Of a DNA stretch of 64,000 bases, positions 10,571 through 61,013 are shown in pieces. A program made the position numbers and the translations under genes. Below the pieces are notes generated by a model, which ran no database searches, had not been told where the DNA came from, and saw only the letters and a program-made list of their open reading frames with translations. Origin of the DNA: Octopus vulgaris (Eukaryota); the NCBI GenBank assembly GCA_951406725.2, contig OX597814.1, forward strand, positions 172,236,001 to 172,300,000, written 5' to 3'. Every line of letters starts with the position of its first letter. Position 1 is the first letter of the stretch.

Positions 10571-11138
10571 AACAAATTTTTTCTCTGGCGCAAGGAAAGG
10601 AGCCTTATCGGCGATGCCTATAGCGGCGGACGAAAAACAACGATGTTAACACGACGCTGGTCAGAAGCTGAAAGGCAGATTTCGGCCAGCAGTCACGTGA
10701 CAGAGAAGAGAGAAAAGAAAAGAAAGAGAAGCAACGGAAGAGAGAGAGAGAGGAGAGAGAGAGAGCGGAGAGACAAACGCAACAAAGAGAGAGAAGAGAG
10801 AGAAAGAAGGAATCAGAGAGGAGAAGGGATGGGTGTCGAAGATTGACCTGTGAGTGCAGAGCGAGACAAAGAATTAGGAGGGTAGTGGAAGATTAGACCA
10901 AAGAATAAATATTAGACGGGCTTCTTTCAGTTTCCGTCCATCAAATACATTCACAAGGCTTTGGTCGGACCGAAGCTACAGTAGAAGGTATCTGCCTAAG
11001 GTGTCACGTAGTGAGGCTGAACCTGGAACCATGTGGTTGGGATGAAAACGTCTTACTACACAGTCACGCCCATGCTTCGACACATCCACACCTAACCAAA
11101 AATATATACACGATGATCGAGTCCGGAGCGTTTTGGAT

Positions 11139-11537
11139 CAGAGGTCTTTTCGATGAAGTTTGGCCTGGGAGTTAAAGTAAAACAATACCAACCCTTGAAA
11201 AATTGAACAAAATGACAAAATATGAAAGTCCACACGGGCATGAAAATTTTGTTGACTTATCACATTCTAACCCACACTAAACTCTGCTACCATATGAACG
11301 ATCACACGCAAAACGACAATACACGTCTATAAAAACTCAGAGGTCTGTTCGATGAAGTTTGACTTGGGAGTTAAAGTAAAACAATATCAACCCCTGAAAA
11401 ATCGAACAAAATGACAAAATATGAAAGTCCACACGGGCATGAAAATTTTGTTGACTTATCACATTCTAACCCACACTAAACTTTGCTACCATATGAACGA
11501 TCACACTCAAAACGACAATACACGTCTATAAAAACTA
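11139..11537 (+). repeat. 199-bp direct tandem duplication
   Basis: 11139-11337 is repeated at 11338-11537 with few substitutions. Confidence 0.85.
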
Positions 11538-13282: not shown

Positions 13283-14617
13283 AAACAGAGCTCAATGCTA
13301 AAAACAAGATAATAGGTATTAACACTTCAGCTGTCCCAGTTATAAGTTACAGCTACAATATCCTTAACTGGACACTAAATGAACTGACCAAAATAGATAG
13401 GAAAACAAGAAAAATAATGACAGGATCTAGGATGCATCACCCAAAATCTGACATAGAAAGACTATATATACAACGTATAGAAGGTGGTAGAGGCCTTATA
13501 CAGCTGGAAAACTACTATAAAATAACCACCATAGGACTGCAAAAATATCTACTTCAGAAGGAAGGAAAACTGATACAAATAACGGCAAAACACGAGCAAA
13601 ACAAAAAACTGTTCTCAGTATTTAAGGAAGCTGACAAATACAAACAAGAAATCATACCACCTAATAAATATGATGAAGAAGAAGAAGAAGAAGAAGAAGA
13701 AGAAGAAGAAGAAGAAGAAGAAGAAGAAGAAGAAGAAGAAGAAGAAGAAGAAGAAGAAGAAGAAGAAGAAGAAGAAGAAGAAGCAGAACAACAACAACAA
13801 CAACAAAGAAATAGACAAAGAAAAATCCCAGCAATGGTTGAGAAGCTCAGGACTCAAAAGCAGAAACAGAGGGATTTTTAATTGCAACTCAAGACCAAAG
13901 CCTCCCCACCAGAAATTACCAAAAACATGTAATGAAAAGAAATATAACAAGTAACTGCAGAATATGTGGAGATGGACAAGAAACAATAAATCATATCTCT
14001 AGCTGCCCAATCCTGGCTAAGAAGGAATATATTTACAGACATGACAGAGTTGGAACCTACATACATTGGAAGCTATGCCAACATTATGGAATAACAACAG
14101 AAAAAAGATGGTATAGGCACACACTAGAAAAGGTCACAGAAAACGAGAAAGCAACCATACTCTGGGATATGCCGATACACACAGATAGAGAAATTAAGGC
14201 CAACAGACCAGATACAGTTGTCAGAGATCATGAAGAAAAAAAATGCATTCTAATTGATGTATCAATACCGGCAGATGACAACGTGTCTCTAAAAGAAATG
14301 GAGAAACTTTCAAAATACAAAGACCTGGAAATAGAGGTAACCAGAATGTGGAATCTAAAAACAGAAACAATTCCATATCATAGTAGGTGCATTAGGCATG
14401 ATAAAAACATATTCAGACAAATACATAACAAAAACACCAGGACTTACAAACACATATAACATACAGAAAATTGCACTACTAGGCACTGCACACATCCTAC
14501 GCAGAACAATTTCCATACAATAACCATCAGAGCATCACAACAAATCACAGCACATACCCAAGGCACACAGAGCTGCGCTCGGTAGTGAAGTGAAAGCACG
14601 CTATAAAAATAAAACTA

Positions 14618-15839: not shown

Positions 15840-17545
15840 GTTAGTTGCTTATTGGAATGAACACTGTCAAGACTTGCGTTGGTGGCCGTCTTGAATCAAA
15901 GAACTGTTGAAGAGGCACGACTGCAAGGTAGGCGCTTGTTTTTTTAAGGGACTTAGTAGGGAATTTGCTGTATGACATTGTTTTTCCTTTTTTCATATAA
16001 GAAATCCCCACTGGGTCTCGAACATTTGTCTGCTGCAGTCGCGCTGAGTAACTCACTTAGCGGTGAGAATTGTTTTGTTTTGGTGGGCGTGTCTCGCTAC
16101 CAAAATTTGAAAAGTTTATAAAAATTCGACCCATTCGTAGAGGAATTTTTTTCCTGCTACGGTGAACTGGACTGCCTGTATGAAGCAATATTCTGGAGGA
16201 TTACCTGTGGAATATTTGTGGATTACCTGTGGACCCGGATTACCTAAGTGGGGAAATTGTGTTGCTGGGCTGGAACTGTCTTCCTTCGTTCTTTTCTCTG
16301 CTCTGTCTTTCTGCTGTTTCCTTGTGTTTCTTTGGGCTTTCATTTGAATATTCTGAACTTATTTTGAAAATTTTCCTCTGTTTTTTTTTTTTTTGCAAAG
16401 CATGGCAAAAAATAAAAACACTGTCTTGGAGTGGGAAGTTGTGTCCCCCAAGCAGTGGGTAAAGGACCATAATGGGAGAACGGTGGTGTTGAGGACATAT
16501 TCTAAGTCCCTCGACACCATCACTGTGTTCTCTCAAGTAAATATTGAGAAGAAGTTGGCAGAATACCTGCCAACCACCAAGTTTATTGCAAGGGGTGTCA
16601 AATATGCAACATTGTGGTTGCTATTTGATACCCCTGAGGAGGCTCGCATTTTTGCGAGCCAGCCCCTGGAAGGGGAGAAAATCCTGTTTCTACCTACATA
16701 TCGTGGGAAGAAATTGACAAAAGCTTGGGTGTGTGGGCTGCCACTCAAAATAGAACTCGAGTGGATAGAGGACACTATCCGCCGGGGTCTGGGTGGCAGT
16801 GAAGCCAAGCTCTTGAATATTAAAATGATGCCTGCGGCTGATTGGGTGGGATCAAACGAAGTTTTGACCCTGTGGACTCAATCAGCCGATGATCTGGTGT
16901 TCCCAGATTTTTTGAGGATGGCCGGGTCCAAGTATCCTGTGATTCTTAAGGGACGCCTCTTCCAAGTGTCATCAGTGCCTGGAGCCTGGCCACATTAAGA
17001 AGAACTGTCCCAAGGACCAGAGCAGGGTCCTAGAGCAGTTAGTTGTGGAAGAACCCCCTTCCCCTCCTCCTCCGAAAAGAGAGATGGAGGAGGAGAGAGT
17101 GACCTCTCCCGAAAAAAAGGAGAGAAAAAGAAAGAAAGGGAGCAACAATGGTTGTTCTCTGAGGGATCCCGGGATTGCGGGAGGAAGCGAGGTTCCTGCG
17201 GTTATGGCAATGGAGCCATCCTCTCCCTCACCAAAGATAAAAAAGAAAAGAGAAAAAGAACCGGACAGTGCCGGGGGTATGCAGTGTACTGCTGGAATGT
17301 CCCTAGCCCTCTTCGGTGGGAATCGTGTCACCGACAGAGGAAGCTGTAACTTCGTTGGTTGTGCCACCGGCAGAGGAAGAGACACCGTTGGCGGGAATTG
17401 TGCTGCCAACGGTAGAATTGAATACCTCGACCCCGGAGGAAAACAAATTATTGCTCTTCTTCTACAGAGGTGGAGAGGTAGAAAAGGTGGTGGAAAATCA
17501 CTATAAGGGAATACCTTTAACTTTCACACGGGAACCCGAATGGCC
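15840..17545 (+). mobile_element. LINE 5' region (UTR plus ORF1 with CCHC knuckle; L1/Tx1-like), 3'-truncated
   Basis: ATG at 16402 opens a ~200-codon frame. A frameshifted continuation gives CHQCLEPGHIKKNC (CX2CX4HX4C, 16967-17008) followed by a low-complexity K/E/P tail. It interrupts a SINE A head at ~15791-15827. Confidence 0.65.
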
Positions 17546-23586: not shown

Positions 23587-24852
23587 CAAGGGTTGGACAA
23601 AATAATGGAAACACCTAGTATCAAAGCATCATAATTTTGAAGTATCTATAAAACAGTCAAAAGCTTATTTATTTTTATCTTTTTTATTTATTATTACTGT
23701 TGCTTAATATGTTTTTCTAAAATTGCTGTTTATTTTCAGATATCATCAGAAAATATAGAATTAACATTCATTAAAGGGACAGATCTATCGGAGTTTCAAA
23801 GAGGTCAAATTGTTGGTACTCGTATGGCAGGCGCTAGCGTAACGAAAACAGCCGAAATATTTGGTGTATCAAGAAGTACTGTCTCGAAAATAATGACAGC
23901 CTTTGAGAAAGAGGGAAAACCTCGTCGAAACAAAAACTCCAGAAAACAACAACTTTCAGATAGGAACCGTCGGACTCTTACGCGAATTGTTAGAAAGGAT
24001 CACAAAACTGCAACTCACAAAATTACTGCAGAACTTAATGACCACCTCGAGAACCCAGTTTCCACAAAAACTGTTCGCCGGGAGCAGCACAAAGCTGGAT
24101 TTCACGGGAGGGCTACAATCAGAAAACCACTACTTTCAAAAACAAACGTTGCAAATGCGTTTAGAATGGAGTAAAAACCTGCAGAATTGGTCCCTAGAGC
24201 AGTGGAAGAATGTTATTTTCTCGGACGAGTCCTCCTTTACCTTATTTCCGACCACCGGCCGAGTATACGCGTGGAGACAGCCAAAAGAAGCTTTTGACCA
24301 AGACTGCATTCTTCCAACTGTTAAACAGGGTGGAGGATTTGTAATGATCTGGGGAGCTATATCTTGGAAATCCGCTTGCCCAATGATTTCCCTTCATGGC
24401 AGAATCAATAGTCAAGACTATCTAAGCATTTTATCTGATTAATTTCATCCTATGTTGCGAACTGTTTCCGGAAGGAAACGCAATCTTTCAGGATGATAAT
24501 GCAGATGATAATGCACCAATTCACGCAGCTAAAGTTGTTACTGAATGGCACAAGGAACATTCTAGTGAAGTTGAACATCTTATCTGGCCACCATAGACCC
24601 CAGATCTAAATAATATTAAACATTTATGGAGGATTTTAGAAAAACAAATAAGGAGTAAATATTGTCCACCATCATCACTACAAGAACTGGAGACTGTTTT
24701 AGCTGAAGAATGGAAAAATTCCTTTGGAAACAATTCCAACTTTGTACGAGTCTATACCTCGTAGAATTCAAGCTACAAAGACGGTCCTACTCCATATTAA
24801 AATTAATTTGTTTGAAATTTTAAGGTGTTTCCATTATTTTGTCTAACCTCTG
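23587..24852 (+). mobile_element. Tc1-family DNA transposon, near full length
   Basis: TIRs CAAGGGTTGGACAAAATAATGGAAACACCT / AGGTGTTTCCATTATTTTGTCTAACCTCTG, with TA at the right junction. Confidence 0.92.
23775..24800 (+). pseudogene. Tc1 transposase (frameshifts and stops)
   Basis: HTH GASVTKTAEIFGVSRSTVSKI, RKPLL, WKNVIFSDES, VMIWGAI, FQDDNA..PIH and WPP*TPDLNNI. Confidence 0.9.
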
Positions 24853-25012
24853 TATAACACAGAGAATAGCACCACTAGGCACCGCAAACTTCCTACGTGA
24901 AACACTTTCAATAGAGTAAAAATAAGAGCATCACAACAACCGCAGCACAAGCCCAAGGCACACAGAGCTGGGCTCATTAGTGCAGTGAAAGCACGTGATA
25001 AAAGTAAGACTT

Positions 25013-25102
<90 letters not shown>

Positions 25103-25124
25103 TATGATGATGGTGATAATAATA

Positions 25125-25850
25125 AGACGAATGTACACAAGCTCTGCATGAAGAGGGGTAAATGTGGACGTGAGCTGATTAGCATATCGGTGTACCTCAA
25201 CCGTGAAAGAAGGAACGTGGCAGTATATTTGGTAAACAGCAAACAAGACCTGCTACAGTATGCTGCTAATACAGAAGGATTTATCAAAAATGGACGTGAG
25301 AGTGCTCATGAATTCCGATCACCAACAGCCAACGAGAGAGAAAGAACCTTACTCCGCATGGATTTACATGGTCAGTTCCACCGTGAGACTAGCAATTTAA
25401 AAGACCAGGAAGCATCATGGAGGTGGATCAGCAAGGGTGACATAAAAAAGAATACTAAAAGTCCAATCATCACTGCTCAAGATCAGGCATTGAATACCAA
25501 CTCAGTGAAAAAGGATATATACCACTCAAGTGCATCGGACCTCTGCAGAATGTGTGGGAAGAGGGTCGAAAACGGGACTCACATTGTTAGTGCTTGTGAA
25601 AGTCTTGTGCAGAAAGAGTACAAGCGCAGACATGATAAGGTAGCCCAAAACCTTTATTGGCTACTATGCCAGAAGTATGGATACGCGGTTATGGGTGCTC
25701 GGTGCAACATACACCGGAAAAGGTAATGGACGAAAAGGGAAAGGCGAAAGTCCTCTGGGACTTTGACTTCCAGACAGTCAAAACGTTAGAATACCGAAGG
25801 CGGATATAATAACATTTAGGAGGACAAACAAGAGTACCTAATAATTGATG
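25125..25850 (+). mobile_element. Second RLE-type (R4-like) LINE fragment
   Basis: LHGQF, AQDQALNT, CRMCGKRVENGTHIVSAC, RRHDKVA and LWDF motifs. It begins right after (TAA)n. Confidence 0.82.
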
Positions 25851-26512: not shown

Positions 26513-26831
26513 TTAGAGACAAAACCACTATTATGCAAATCAAACAAAGAAAGACTTAATCCAATACATCAAATAATTTATATAAATTAAAATTTAACAA
26601 TTATAAATAACCACTACGATCGTTTCGTGTCAGCACATCTTGGAGACATTCTTCAGGTGGTTTCAAAACCTAAAATATAATCAATTTTTTTAAGACATAA
26701 ATATCTATATAATCTAAATAATAGTCGTTTTGTCTCTAATTTAATATAATATTATTTTACTATAAAATTGGATTCAATCCTAAATCTGATTTTTCCCTGT
26801 AAATTTGGATTTATTCCCTAATATTTATTAT

Positions 26832-33040: not shown

Positions 33041-33364
33041 TGCATAACCAGGAACTATAAGCATCTATACATACCATGCGAACAACAACGCATCCAGCAG
33101 AGCATATACAAATAATGTTCACACTTAAATATACATGAAAGGGGCTTCTCTTTCTTGTTCATCTCGGCCGTATGTTTCGGTCGAGCGCCCTGTATCTAGT
33201 TCTGGAAATTGTATTTCGTAAACCACAGACTACGCCGATGATCTTGCAGATTTTTGCGTATACATATACGTAAATATTAACCGAAATAACTCTGAATATA
33301 TTCCGGTTTAATTTTTAAATAAACTATAAATTTTTAAATAAACTATCAAGATAAAATCTACATA

Positions 33365-33736
33365 GGCGTAGGAGTGGCTGTGTGGTAAGTAGCTTGTTTA
33401 CTAACCACATGGTTCCGGGTTCAGTCCCACTGCGTGGCACCTTGGGCAAGTGTCTTCTACTATAGCCTCGGGCCGACCAAAGCCTTGTGAGTGGATTTGG
33501 TAGACGGAAACTGAAAGAAGCCCGTCGTATATATGTATATGCGTGGGTGTGTTTGTGTCTGTGTTTGTCCCCCTAGCATTGCTTGACAACCGATGCTGGT
33601 GTGTTTACGTCCCCGTTACCTAGCGGTTCGGCAAAAGAGACTAAGTCCCGGGGTCGAGTTGCTCGATTAAAAAAGGCGGTGCTCCAGCATGGCCGCAGTC
33701 AAATGACTGAAACAAGTAAATGAGAGTAAATGAGTA
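33365..33736 (+). mobile_element. SINE family A, full length
   Basis: GGCGTAGGAGTGGCTGTGTGG (A box), GGGTTCAGTCCC (B box), CACCTTGGGCAAGTG, central microsatellite and GAGTAAA tail. Confidence 0.9.
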
Positions 33737-34176
33737 TAAGATTTTATCTAGTAGCCATCGAAAAGAAAAAAACTAATACAAACTATATAGTATTTTTTCC
33801 TTATATATAAAATACATAATTATATCAAGGGCTATCACTATGAGTAACGCCAACGCTTTAAGGGGACTACTTCAATAAATATACACAAGCACCTAATTCG
33901 GGGGTATGAACATAAGAGAACTTCTCTTAAAAAATGGTTTAGTCAGGTTTTATCCTTGTATATATATACTCTCTTTTACTCTTTTACTTGTTTCAGTCAT
34001 TTGACTGCGGCCATGCTGGAGCACCGCCTTTAGTCGAGCAAATCGACCCCGGCACTTATTCTTTGTAAGCCCAGTACTTATTCTATCGGTCTCTTTTGCC
34101 GAACCGCTAAGTCACGGGGACGTAAACACACCAGCATCGGTTGTCAAGCAATGCTAGGAGGACAAACACAGACACA

Positions 34177-34244
<68 letters not shown>

Positions 34245-34251
34245 AATATAT

Positions 34252-34794
34252 CTTTGCAAGATAGAGGACGCCGTGATGGCGTCAGGCCTATCTGGTGACG
34301 TTGATGTTCGCCTGGGGCTAAATGCAACAGTGACACCCCCACCACCCTGCCCTGTCCCTAGCCATATTCGGTTGGCTAATATCCCTTATATTACGGAGAA
34401 GTCACTGTCTATATCTCATTTAGAGAATTATTATTGCTGTCGAACAGATTTTCGAAATCAGTAAATGTATTTACTTGAAAATCCTTATATATATCTTGCA
34501 AAGTTGGTCGTTCATCGAGAAGCGATGCCTACCACACGTTGATAATAGGCAATACACCTTGAAACCTAGGTCCGTGTGTGGTATCGGCTTCTTGGTGAGT
34601 GATCTCCCTTTGCAAGATAGAGGACGCCGTGATGGCGTCAGGCCTATCTGGTGACGTTGATGTTCGCCTGGGGCTAAATGCAACAGTGACACCCCCACCA
34701 CCCTGCCCTGTCCCTAGCCATATTCGGTTGGCTAATATCCCTTATATTACGGAGCAGTCACTGTCTATATCTCATTTAGAGAATTATTATTGCT
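34252..34794 (+). mobile_element. Retrozyme-like element, 356-nt unit, ~1.5 copies
   Basis: 34252-34438 repeats at 34608-34794 with one substitution seen. It is non-coding and highly structured, has a single HHR, and has TA runs on both sides. Confidence 0.82.
34533..34578 (+). ncRNA. Type I hammerhead ribozyme, U3-A8 core variant
   Basis: cacacg TTGATAA tagg-caataca-cctt GAAA C-ctag-G TC cgtgtg. Predicted cleavage after C34572. Confidence 0.8.
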
Positions 34795-35100
34795 ATATAT
34801 ATATATATATACATATATACGACAGGCTTCTTTCAGTTTCCGTCTGCCAAATCCACTCACAAGGCATTGGTCGGCCCGGGGCTATAGCAGAAGACACTTG
34901 CCCAAGATGCCACGCAGTGGGACTGAACCCGGAACCATGTGGTTGTTTAGCAAGCTACTTACCACACAGCCACTCCTATATATATATAGTGGTCATTCCT
35001 CTTAATTTTGTATGTATAAAATTTTTAATCTTCGGATTTTTTAAAAATATGCTAGGCCACTGGTTTTAATTGATTAATATTAATTTCTACCCTTATTTAA

Positions 35101-35495
35101 TCTTTATATATAAAAGTCAAGTTGTGTGTCTGTCTCCTACGATTTAGATTCCTAGCCACTCCCACATTTTGCGGTGCAGTGTAACCAAAAGCGGGTATCT
35201 TATAGTCGTGATTCATATCGAGCCCTTCTGGGTATTAGCGCGCGTCTACGATGAGTCTACGATTAAAAAAAAAAATTACCATCATTTTTTCCCATTTTTA
35301 ATGCATTTTTTTGCTATTATATAAGGGAAGTAACTCTCTAAAAATGTATTATTAAATCTCAGAACGTAAAAAGCTACAGTAACACCCCTCTTTGTGGTTA
35401 GCCATATTGAGATGGCTATTATACTTTACATATCTAAAAATGCTTATATAGTTATTTCCCTTACAAACCCGAGCAACGCCGTGCGATACTGCTAG
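35101..35495 (+). mobile_element. Non-autonomous Helitron
   Basis: A|TC 5' end, subterminal CCCGAGCAACGCCG.G matching the 4381 element, and a CTAG|T 3' end. Confidence 0.85.
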
Positions 35496-35700
35496 TTTTA
35501 TATAAAAAATGTTCTCTAGCCGGTAAATTAACTGCTGTAGTTTCTTACCTGCAGAGTAATTTCCGACCTCAGCGCGCCAAAGTGAAGGCATTTGAAGGCA
35601 TTATATACACATAAATATAATTTGTAGGACTTTATGCATGCTGGATTTCGGTCGAGCGCCCTGTATCTAGTTCTGGAAATTGTATTTCTTAAACGACAGA

Positions 35701-35775
35701 CTACGCCGATGATCTTGCAGATTTTTGCGTATCCATATACGTAAATATTGACAAGTGAAACTAATTAGTACGTAG
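35701..35775 (+). ncRNA. Type I hammerhead-like fold with U4C core
   Basis: ctacg CCGATGA tcttg...caagt GAAA cta-at-tag TA cgtag. Confidence 0.65.
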
Positions 35776-40751: not shown

Positions 40752-41505
40752 TTCTTTTTACTCTTTTAATTGTTTCAGTCATTTGACTGTGACCATGCAG
40801 AAGTACCATCTTTAGTTGAACAAATCGATCCAAGGACTTATTCTTTGTAAGCCTAGTACTGATTCTATCGATCTCTTTGGCCGAACCGCTATGTTATGGA
40901 GACGTAAACACACCAGCATCGGTTGCCAAGCGATGTTGGGGGGACAAACATATACACACACACACATATATATATATATACATAGAGACGACGGGCTTCT
41001 TTCAGTTTCCGTCTAGCAAATTCAATCGCAAGGCTTTGGTCGCTCAGAATTTTGACCGGTGTGCTAACGATTCTGCCAGCTCACCGCTTTGATAATGATA
41101 ATAATAATAATCCTTTCTACTGGAAGAATATGGCCACGAACGTGGCGGAGGAATTAAGTCGATTACATCGACCCAAGTGAGTGACTGGTATTTATTTAAT
41201 CGACCCCGAAAGAATGAAAGGCAAAGTCGACCTCGGCGGAATTTGAACTTAGAACGTAGCGGCAGACGAAATACCTATTTCTTTACTACCCACAAGGGGC
41301 TAAACACAGAGAGGACAAACAAGGACAGACAATGGTTTAAGTCGATTATATCGACCACAGTGCGTAACTGGTACTTAATTTGCTTCCCAATCACATGGTT
41401 CCGGGTTCAGTCGCATCTTAGGCAAGTTTCTTCTACTATAACCTCAGACCAACCAAAAGCTTTGTGAGTGGATCTGGTAGACGGAAACTGAAAGAAGCCC
41501 TCATG
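40752..41505. mobile_element. Cluster of SINE A and SINE B fragments
   Basis: Matches the family A and B copies elsewhere in the window. Confidence 0.75.
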
Positions 41506-41517
41506 TATATATATATT

Positions 41518-42137
41518 TTCAATGTTAAATGGCAAGATCGTGTTCGAAATAGTGAGTTACTGGAGAGGTGTGAGATCACTGGTATTGAAACATTTTTGAT
41601 TAAGATACAAATGCGGTGGTCTGGTCATCTTGTAAGAATGGATGACTCAAGAGTTCCAAAGCAGCTCTTTTATGGGCAATTGACAAATTCTTCCCGTCCA
41701 ACAGGGCGTCCTCTTCTTCGTTACAAGGACAAACTAAAAGATAATCTGAAGCGTTGTGACATTGCTCTGAGCTCCTGGGAGAGTGCAGCAGGGGATCGCA
41801 GCAAATGGAGGAAAATGTGTTCTCTAAAGACTAGAGAATTTGAAAGTAACCGTCTTCGTCATAGGGACGCCCTTCGTGCAAATTTGAAAGCAATGTATCA
41901 TCAGCAAAATCCACCAAACAATGACTGTGTGTGTCACTGTGGGTTTAAAGCACGAAGCAAAGCTGGGTTAGCTGTCCACTCGAGAAGACATTTTGAACCA
42001 CCGAATACATGCAGGTGTATCATTTGCGAGAAAGTGTGCAAGACATCTGCTGGATTGAAGGTACACATGCGGTGTCACAAGGCTTAGGAATTGTTGAAGG
42101 TTTATTTACTGAACCCTCATTCATCGTCTTCGATGAT
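41518..42137 (+). mobile_element. RTE-clade LINE 3' fragment with two C2H2-like fingers
   Basis: WQDRVRNSELL, MRWSGHLVRMDDSRVPKQLFYG, RPTGRP..RYKD, C.CGF...H..H and CIICEKVC..H..H. Confidence 0.88.
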
Positions 42138-46689: not shown

Positions 46690-46871
46690 ATTAGGGCTTA
46701 GTAAAATAAAATTACTTTGCCACATACTGAACTTAGTAGAAATAGCAGCCCAAAAAATTTTTTTTTAGCATTTCTACTACTTAAAGAAAATTTCTCTCAG
46801 ATAATGTTTACTCCAGACAGCTCACGAAGGTTTGGGGTAAATACAGAAAAATATCACAAGTACATAGATCG

Positions 46872-46934
46872 TTTGAGTACGTCAACGTTTCAAGATTAGC
46901 CAAATAAAATCAGCATTTCTTTCGTCAGCTCAAA
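46872..46934 (-). ncRNA. Canonical type I hammerhead ribozyme (left arm)
   Basis: Reverse complement of 47692-47754. Confidence 0.85.
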
Positions 46935-47691
46935 ATTTCTTAATTTGGATTTGGAAACACTAAAAGAAGGAACTTTACCTATCAGCGAACTTGTCGTTTC
47001 AGATGAACCACTCCAACTAAACAGTGTCAACAAATTCAAAATGCGCAGGCGTAAAATTCTGCACTCCCCATTCCACCCACGTGGTCTATCTAGCAAACAT
47101 TATATTTTAACCGCGAGAACCGAGGCAGTATGACCGAGAGAAATGAATTATAATATCAACAATTGAGGGTAAAATTAATTAATTAATCAATTTCACCAAG
47201 TGTTCAGTATGTAAAAGGACCATTTAAGGCGAATTCAAAATATTACATTATATAATTAGGGCTAAGTAAAATAAAATTACTTTGCCACATACTGAACTTA
47301 GTAGAAATAGCAGCCAAAAAAAATTTTTCTTAGCATTTCTACTACTTAAAGAAAATTTCTCTCAGATAAGCCCTAATTATATAATTTTGAATTCGCCTTA
47401 AATTATCCTTTTACATACTGAACACTTGGTGAAATTGATTAATTAATTAATTTTACCCTCAATTGTTGATATTATAATTAATTTCTCTCGGTCATACTGC
47501 CTCGGTTCTCGCGGTTAAAATATAATGTTTGCTAGATAGACCACGTGGGTGGAATGGGGAGTGCAGAATTTTACGCCTGCGCATTTTGAATTTGTTGACA
47601 CTGTTTAGTTGGAGTGGTTCATCTGAAACGACAAGTTCGCTGATAGGTAAAGTTCCTTCTTTTTAGTGTTTCCAAATCCAAATTAAGAAAT

Positions 47692-47754
47692 TTTGAGCTG
47701 ACGAAAGAAATGCTGATTTTATTTGGCTAATCTTGAAACGTTGACGTACTCAAA
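47692..47754 (+). ncRNA. Canonical type I hammerhead ribozyme (right arm)
   Basis: tttgag CTGACGA aaga...tctt GAAA cgt-tg-acg TA ctcaaa. Confidence 0.87.
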
Positions 47755-48034
47755 CGATCTATGTACTTGTGATATTTTTCTGTATTTACCCCCAAACCTT
47801 CGTGAGCTGTCTGGAGTAAACATTATTTGAGAGAAATTTTCTTTAAGTAGTAGAAATGCTAAGAAAAAATTTTTTTTGGCTGCTATTTCTACTAAGTTCA
47901 GTATGTGGCAAAGTAATTTTATTTTACTAAGCCCTAATTATATAATGTAATATTTTGAATTCGCCTTAAATGGTCCTTTTACATACTGAACACTTGGTGA
48001 AATTGATTAATTAATTAATTTTACCCTCAATTGT

Positions 48035-48173
<139 letters not shown>

Positions 48174-60100: not shown

Positions 60101-60574
60101 GTATGTATATAAATATATATATATATGTATATATATGTAAGCGCTTGTTTTCTCTTTGATACTATGGCGCTGTGTTTGAGAAGAAACTTAAACGTTAATG
60201 TAGTGTTTGTGCAAATAATTTTGTGTCTGATCAACCGTTGGTAAGCATTCTTGACAGATAAAGTGAGAAACACGCGTACGAAAGGGATTAAGACTACAGC
60301 AACAACAGCCACAACCGGCATTATAGTCATCATCATCATAATCATCATCATGCACAGCAATAGCAATAACAGCAAAAACGAAAACATCACCAGCAGCAGC
60401 AACAGCAACAGCAACAACAATAACCACAACAGTAAAACCGAAAACAGCCGAAATAACAATCAGCAATTGATGCAACAATGCAACAATGCAACAATAGCAT
60501 AGACAGCAGTTGCACTTGTAGGAGAAATATCACAGCGTCACACCAAGTCATAACACCACCACTGCCGCCGCAAC

Positions 60575-61013
60575 CATGGTTCATGGTCTCAAAAATTTGT
60601 CTTATGAAGAAAGGCTGAGGACGCTCGACCTTTATTCTCTTGAAAAACGCCGCCGCCGTGGGGATCTCATTCTCGCCCACAACATCATAAGCGGAAAGTG
60701 TAACCTCTCGAAAGAGCTGTTCTTCACTCCTGCTCCAGAGCGTCGGCTGCGGGGTCATTCCGAAAAGCTCTACCTACGACGATTTCATCTCAATCGAAGG
60801 AGAGGAGCTTTCTCCGTCCGGGTTGCGGATCCGTGGAACAAGCTGCCAGACGAGATGGTGAAGATGCCGACGACCGCTTTGTTCAAAGCCTCCCTGGACC
60901 TCAAGTGGCCTGAACTCTTTACATGAACACCACCCTGTACTTAACTCCATGTCCCCCTACATGGCCTTGCTATTTGCTTTTGAGCCAAATTAACTAACTA
61001 ACTAACTAACTAA
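60575..61013 (+). mobile_element. CR1-like LINE 3' fragment with (TAAC)n tail
   Basis: LKNLSYEERLRTLDLYSLEKRRRRGDLI, RLRGH and FSVRVADPWNKLP, then a short 3' UTR and taactaactaac. Confidence 0.88.

Follow-up and report, generated by a model that had tools for sequence, protein, structure and literature searches.

The element at 34252-34794 of the analysed window, a stretch of 64,000 nucleotides of the Octopus vulgaris genome, is a young, retrotransposed, 5'-truncated and one-armed copy of a dispersed non-coding family. With considerable, though not complete, confidence it is explained as an insertion of a 356-nt unit with a predicted dimer-type hammerhead ribozyme, which was made by a Penelope-like enzyme, probably from a circular template. 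On every sequence-level feature checked the family fits the animal non-LTR retrozymes and would be a new member of this class. The retrozyme class, the U3-A8 core and the Penelope link are already published, and the locus is ordinary for this genome. The return route of animal retrozymes into the genome is so far a proposal, in which a primed circle is copied by a Penelope-type enzyme, and the octopus family offers a countable genomic footprint for both the circle and the enzyme parts of this route.

The element is composed of a part-unit and a complete unit in tandem (Table 1). Two copies of 187 nt (34252-34438 and 34608-34794) are spaced by 356 nt and differ by a single mismatch at 34399/34755, in agreement with the earlier note, which had described 1.5 tandem 356-nt units with one substitution. 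The A at 34399 is a private change, as A was found in one and C in 82 of 83 aligned segments. The unit is numbered from q1 (34439) to q356 (34794), and the predicted cut falls after q134. The intact neighbouring repeat at 33369-33734 aligns to 34978-34807 and 34198-33971, i.e., to both flanks, so the element splits one antisense copy of this repeat, which we take to be SINE-like, at an internal CA/TA repeat; the proposed insertion within the TA microsatellite of a SINE is thereby borne out. The window copy consists of a single arm that was started at the long 3' end and comprises 1.5 turns. It contains only one hammerhead, its upstream half-unit having none, and no partner ribozyme is present in cis; hence it cannot be cut twice to free a monomer, and it is likely a dead end itself.

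Table 1. Parts of the window copy and of the repeat that it interrupts (positions in the window)
Feature	Position	Strand
Upstream part-unit, 5'-truncated, unit positions 170-356, without hammerhead	34252-34438	+
Complete 356-nt unit, 44.7% G+C, terminating at the long 3' end of the family	34439-34794	+
Rod, 36 bp including 6 G.U pairs, running on into hammerhead stem I	34492-34619	+
Type I hammerhead, predicted cut after C34572	34533-34578	+
Branched 3' domain, kept across branches	34623-34764	+
Helices of the 3' domain	34623-34639, 34641-34675, 34683-34690/34757-34764, 34715-34734	+
Optional 45-nt "tail" from one fixed 3' end (unit position 311) to the other (356)	34750-34794	+
(TA)n target at the 3' junction, target-site duplication unreadable in (TA)n	34795-34820	.
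Interrupted SINE-like host repeat, 5' part	34807-34978	-
Interrupted SINE-like host repeat, 3' part	33971-34198	-

The window unit is multi-copy: at least 136 matches with 92-100% identity were obtained from the 40 candidates scored of 1427, and the U3-A8/CCUAGG motif occurs 237 times genome-wide (control 0). Besides this check of the copy number, the recent retrotransposition proposed in the earlier note was supported in the form of a young, multi-copy, retrotransposed element of the retrozyme type. A 17-mer of the window's own sub-lineage has 27 occurrences, 2 as tandem pairs. Two or more ribozymes in tandem on one strand are present in 11 of 42 family loci, including L002 (99.7-100% identity). 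When an "active" copy is defined by two consecutive ribozyme-bearing units, the window copy has one, which lowers the probability that this copy is active and does not touch its family membership.

The sister branch has a 360-nt unit which is 83-86% identical to that of the window and carries the core CCGAUGA (C3-C4-G8) and the palindrome CCAUGG, with 975 motifs counted (control 7). This branch is younger than the U3-A8 branch, because identical units lie on many contigs and its arms reach 14.7 units, compared with at most 2.7 units in the U3-A8 branch (49 loci). One of its two-armed arrays (L170, 172226364-172228877), with 3.2 and 3.8 units that are all identical, is located some 7 kb ahead of the window. 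Among older relatives, at roughly 60% identity, the cores are CUGAUGA or CUGAGGA and the palindromes mostly differ, and in some old copies the palindrome is lost. A look-up for expression listed no RNA entry with this sequence, entry types being guessed. Contigs from sequencing runs presumed to be RNA also cover the unit; those of 391 and 390 nt match one sister turn plus an overlap, and a 162-nt piece is identical to the window unit. Such contigs do not distinguish a circle from a tandem array, nor an RNA from a DNA origin, and the flank intended as a silent control was a very abundant repeat, so they carry no weight here. At L155:1930-2520 another repeat with a unit of about 360 nt makes 1.5 turns within TA; it carries a U3-A8 hammerhead with a CAUG palindrome and is invisible to the unit profile.

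The hammerhead said to cap the rod, with its UUGAUAA core and GUC site, was found at 34533-34578: the core lies at 34539-34545 (U3, A8), GAAA at 34561-34564, and C17 of the GUC site at 34572. Stem I has 6 bp (34533-34538/34573-34578), stem II has 3 bp (34547-34549/34557-34559) flanked by U.U, and stem III has 2 bp and is closed by the palindrome CCUAGG at 34565-34570; an Rfam scan at the gathering score did not detect the hammerhead of the unit. In the monomer the active fold is 6.2 kcal/mol above the minimum with a probability of about 4e-5 for stem III, and the preferred fold buries the core. For this reason and due to its single hammerhead, the window copy does not hold the place of best experimental candidate of the window that it had been given. 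By energy estimates a two-palindrome dimer duplex reaches -12.8 kcal/mol versus +1.3 kcal/mol for the hairpin, and the ribozyme is predicted to be of the dimer type, needing a dimer partner. The dimer arrangement of minimal hammerheads is described in passages of PMC4209133 and PMC6765202, and 8 of 9 predicted Xenopus retrozyme dimers gave no cleavage in vitro according to sections of 10.64898/2026.07.22.740005.

The fold of the rod has an energy of -61.7 kcal/mol, with z of -7.0 on the plus and -4.4 on the minus strand versus shuffles. The rod is thus confirmed on the plus strand, while its description as G.U-rich is only moderately apt with 6 G.U among 36 pairs. As it spans the cleavage site, the rod would clamp both ends of a cut monomer. 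The 356-nt circle, for which folding against shuffles had been suggested as a check, scored -115.5 (z -5.8) with none of 150 shuffles as good; the circular fold of the minus-strand unit gave z of -2.5 (1 of 150 shuffles). Four relatives gave circular folds with z from -3.0 to -5.2, a fifth row being dropped as its coordinates took in an inversion junction, and the plus strand has no folding advantage in L036, nor in 2 of 3 old relatives. From the five additional helices proposed earlier three are predicted with high probability, gacgcc/ggcgtc (p 0.95), acagtgac/gtcactgt (p 0.93), and tagcca/tggcta (p 0.85), and two are not, caggc/gcctg (p 0.01, an overlapping helix being preferred) and taaatg/cattta (p 0.0).

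Comparison of relatives supports the earlier claim of structural selection at the RNA level by covarying pairs, a covarying palindrome, and fixed core residues. In the alignment of 13 units both sides were changed in 11 of 81 pairs, located in the rod, stem I and 3' domain; this count was reached by 1 of 500 shuffles and slid controls gave 0-5, where the structure was drawn from the very 13 related sequences tested and shuffle counts are not probabilities. Invariant columns among the 13 relatives (mean column identity 49%) include A6, A9, G12, A13, A14, and G16.2. The stem III palindrome is, depending on the branch, CCUAGG, CCAUGG, CCGG, CCCGGG, or CUCGAG. This joint change of core and palindrome across branches implies selection for catalysis. 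In a tree built after masking of core and palindrome, the C3-G8 sister nests inside U3-A8 lineages, next to three U3-A8 copies (support 99/99), and monophyly of U3-A8 was rejected (p-AU 0.03), these values being subject to masking in 20 of 21 rows, retesting of the group after the first tree was viewed, a long outgroup branch, and possible recombination. In the simplest reading the 3:8 core pair appears to have undergone two compensatory flips.

The insertions carry a Penelope footprint, i.e., an optional tail, an inverted truncated partner, and a microsatellite target, and this was missed in the earlier account of the element. It was counted in 42 independent insertions (L001-L060 minus 17 duplicate views and one distant relative), a sample biased to the best-scoring and first-listed copies. 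Among 69 outer 3' ends 33 fall at q349-356 and 31 at q307-311, so that 64 of 69 lie at two fixed sites 45 nt apart; none of the outer ends of the 42 insertions is at the cut site, and (TA)n adjoins 62 of the 69. Back-to-back two-armed loci make up 27 of 42 insertions, and 24 of these 27 have one end of each kind. The junctions of the examined insertions lie within (TA)n, where a target-site duplication (>4 bp criterion) cannot be read. A tail, inversion and TA bias are reported for Penelope-like elements in parts of PMC8557442, and passages of PMC11167929 describe for the Anolis element a tail that equals the stretch between two reverse transcriptase (RT) start sites, with both target strands cut and extended.

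The family itself has no protein-coding capacity for mobilisation by tblastn with two Penelope proteins and by open-frame lists, and the open frames that span the unit, which reach about 160-200 codons in some copies, are unlike any Penelope protein. In L001-L060 and L095-L124 no RT-endonuclease frame proved to belong to the element; the matches in L002/L006 and L057 are in flanks. Likewise, none of 47 stretches around GIY-YIG matches (150 of 6136 candidates scored) had a terminal repeat alignable to the unit, and the 1809 matches of a terminal-motif pattern, partly an unrelated repeat, yielded no helper. The match in L089 was rejected as a helper, being a separate insertion of a distant relative. 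Young elements with RT and GIY-YIG exist in this genome, 16 of 148 matches listed falling in a 781-aa open frame, and they are characterized by a CX4CX2C linker, U3-A8-type motifs, and tails of their own. In the two autonomous families examined the tails are about 35 and about 30 nt versus 45 nt in the unit, and no young RT + GIY-YIG element was found to share sequence with the unit. One young Penelope-like family (L081-L088, e.g., L084:1126-3468) has a tail of about 35 nt and an intact 781-aa RT + GIY-YIG frame, which is overlapped on its upstream side by a frame of at least 400 codons. The branched 3' domain of the unit is likely a recognition part for the putative helper enzyme.

No scar marks q134 where the arms cross it; the template was therefore either ligated or uncut. 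A variant common to all units was seen in six of 43 sister loci, each of the six having at least three full units, and four of these variants were checked genome-wide. Within the assembly T32C (8 matches) and A344G (5 matches) are each restricted to a single locus, where both arms carry them, A74G is confined to 12 consecutive units in one arm of one locus, and A69G is not private, as its 45 matches are spread over 9 loci. Repeated copying of a single monomer from two primers would place a variant on both inverted arms and at no other locus. In the U3-A8 sample 15 of 102 private variants at multiply covered positions were in all covering units of their locus and 10 of 71 were common to both arms, these variants being private within the sample, whereas the genome-wide single-template checks concern the sister, which is 83-86% identical. 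Such locus-confined variants on all units or both arms favour one monomer-length, probably circular, template. Private variants could also originate in a source array absent from the assembly. In L206 haplotypes switch between inner and outer units in both arms, which suggests two templates or a template switch within one insertion; consequently, a single insertion can draw on more than one template. The circular RNA of the earlier note is thus supported indirectly by locus-private variants, mostly in the sister branch, and is weakened by the non-private A69G and the mixed L206.

Cut templates were sought at the arm 5' ends and this candidate signal was rejected in both branches. In the sister 5 of 70 ends lie near the cut site (1.4 expected), but three of these had prompted the test and only 2 came from additional loci; in the U3-A8 branch 0 of 80 lie within 3 nt of it (1.6 expected), and for this branch, therefore, no cut template is visible in the genome. 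RNA editing as a source of the variants was likewise unsupported, with A>G in 4 of 6 sister locus-shared variants, one of them non-private, and 3 A>G versus 4 T>C among 15 in the U3-A8 set.

The strongest competitor, which is nevertheless unlikely, keeps the same Penelope-dependent family and replaces the circle by an uncut linear multimer from source arrays with local growth, the ribozyme being weak or dispensable. Such a template agrees with the lack of U3-A8 arms ending at the cut site, with the disfavoured ribozyme fold of the monomer, and with the mixed haplotypes of L206; moreover, according to passages of PMC11167929, Penelope-type insertion in vitro did not require hammerhead cleavage, and local tandem amplification is a model discussed in sections of Li et al. 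2026. However, local expansion does not explain one-locus variants in both arms with no source array in the assembly, and the covariation of core and palindrome across branches, implying selection for catalysis, is opposed to a dispensable ribozyme.

The preferred reading, a probably circular template for a Penelope-like enzyme, can be drawn as a cycle. A locus with two or more tandem ribozymes would be transcribed, and two ribozymes are predicted to pair via their CCUAGG palindromes, cut after C17, and free a monomer. The rod would then hold the monomer ends for ligation, and the monomer's own fold would hide the core and protect the circle. A putative Penelope-type RT/GIY-YIG protein would nick both (TA)n strands. 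In line with the observed fixed ends and paired arms, each strand would prime copying at its own fixed site, 45 nt from the other, and copying would then pass the ligation site and go round the presumed circle. Stops in copying yield the observed 5' truncation and back-to-back arms. The two start sites, the one cut site, and the loci that have two ribozymes and match the window unit at 99-100% identity are exact points for testing, and the natural matched ribozymes, U3-A8/CCUAGG and C3-C4-G8/CCAUGG, on nearly the same scaffold allow core tolerance and dimer selectivity to be addressed. In a tentative and somewhat doubtful extension of this cycle the RNA circles would partly evolve at the RNA level, and a Penelope enzyme that primes one circle from both strands of a TA nick at the two sites would write source-less variants into the germ line. 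Some source-less variants would then perhaps be A-to-I edits, within this one family the 3:8 pair would have gone from C-G to U-A and back, and the matched change of the palindrome would keep each branch self-pairing.

Quite improbable is the reading of the unit as a pseudo-LTR whose autonomous Penelope-like element is represented in the window by a 5'-truncated end. Autonomous elements do have this kind of tail, inversion and TA targeting, and their pseudo-LTRs hold palindromic type I hammerheads, U3-A8 cores included; against this, the units stand head-to-tail, as many as 14.7 to an arm in the sister, and the 5' ends enter TA, unique flank, or an inverted arm with no shared coding region. 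An integrated viroid-like RNA with RNA-to-RNA replication and only occasional reverse transcription, to which the size, the rod-plus-branch fold, and insertion-wide variants absent elsewhere in the genome (which could arise in an RNA population) would conform, is equally hard to credit in view of a minus strand without hammerhead and of branches that comprise hundreds of genomic copies and grade down to about 60% identity, indicating long residence in the genome.

Hammerhead viroids (Avsunviroidae) are structured circles with hammerhead processing and dimer-dependent cleavage; each polarity has a ribozyme, and a DNA form is not known. The octopus unit resembles them in size and in its predicted structured circle, predicted hammerhead processing, and predicted dimer-dependent cleavage, but differs by hundreds of genome-encoded copies, a one-strand ribozyme, and no sign of RNA-to-RNA replication. 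The epithet "viroid-sized" is therefore true for the size, while viroid identity fails, as the ribozyme is on the plus strand only.

The closest known system is the metazoan non-LTR retrozymes described in passages of PMC7229834 (coral, mussel with 350-390 bp, axolotl with 331/353 nt), with which the octopus family has in common tandem units that are non-coding, measure 150-450 bp, have less than 50% G+C and contain a single type I hammerhead, as well as a strongly self-paired predicted circle and, as in axolotl, a dimer-dependent ribozyme, here predicted. The same passages propose Penelope-like elements as helpers and a primed circle as template. Unlike those retrozymes, the octopus unit has a U3-A8 core, and for them cleavage and circles were shown, which are predictions for the octopus family. 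Neither fixed double 3' ends, paired inverted arms, nor TA targeting appear in these passages, and octopus or cephalopods are unmentioned in the main text. Li, Clavereau, and Pollet 2026 (10.64898/2026.07.22.740005) consider the same class and the same proposed helper; their study is vertebrate-centred and relies on co-occurrence and pseudo-LTR homology, the latter not found for the octopus family in the 47 stretches around GIY-YIG matches, and for arrays they discuss local amplification, whereas the octopus data favour arrays made at insertion.

With endonuclease-bearing Penelope-like elements, as described in portions of PMC8557442, PMC11167929, and PMC4209133, the family shares a tail between two start sites and an inverted 5'-truncated partner, along with (TA)n targets, palindromic stem III, and the U3-A8 variant (Schistosoma) of their minimal hammerheads; the elements compared have a Neptune/Nematis-type linker, and that of Anolis is Poseidon PAc. 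The U3-A8 core was described earlier in Penelope-associated hammerheads in a part of PMC4209133. The differences are the absence of a reading frame, a tail of 45 nt versus 30-40 nt, and a ribozyme set in a long rod with a 6-bp stem I versus the minimal form. A literature search confined to main texts and largely to open-access journals returned no octopus or cephalopod retrozyme and no such footprint in retrozymes.

Several other features were observed in the window. An unrelated two-armed element between long TA runs at 46690-48040 (period about 566 nt, arms 97-99% identical) has one hammerhead-like motif with a CUGACGA core per arm, at 46928 (-) and 47698 (+). The AT-rich segment 26509-26834 (-), also between TA runs, is probably a truncated Penelope pseudo-LTR and has a hammerhead-like motif at 26656 with a CUGAAGA core and the palindrome CGAUCG. 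Weak similarity (E 2.6e-5) between 35369-35430 and positions 238-308 of the unit is an old relic or chance; the segment that holds it ends in a hairpin and CTAGT near 35495 and presumably looks Helitron-like. The open frames at 13285-14459, 16357-17506, 23641-24442, 24989-25726, 41422-42087, and 60522-60926 are taken by us for LINE and Tc1/mariner fragments. A 199-nt tandem duplication with 96% identity lies at 11138-11536, and a 107-nt direct repeat, also 96%, at 33175-33281 and 35646-35752 brackets a 2.5-kb region around the element.
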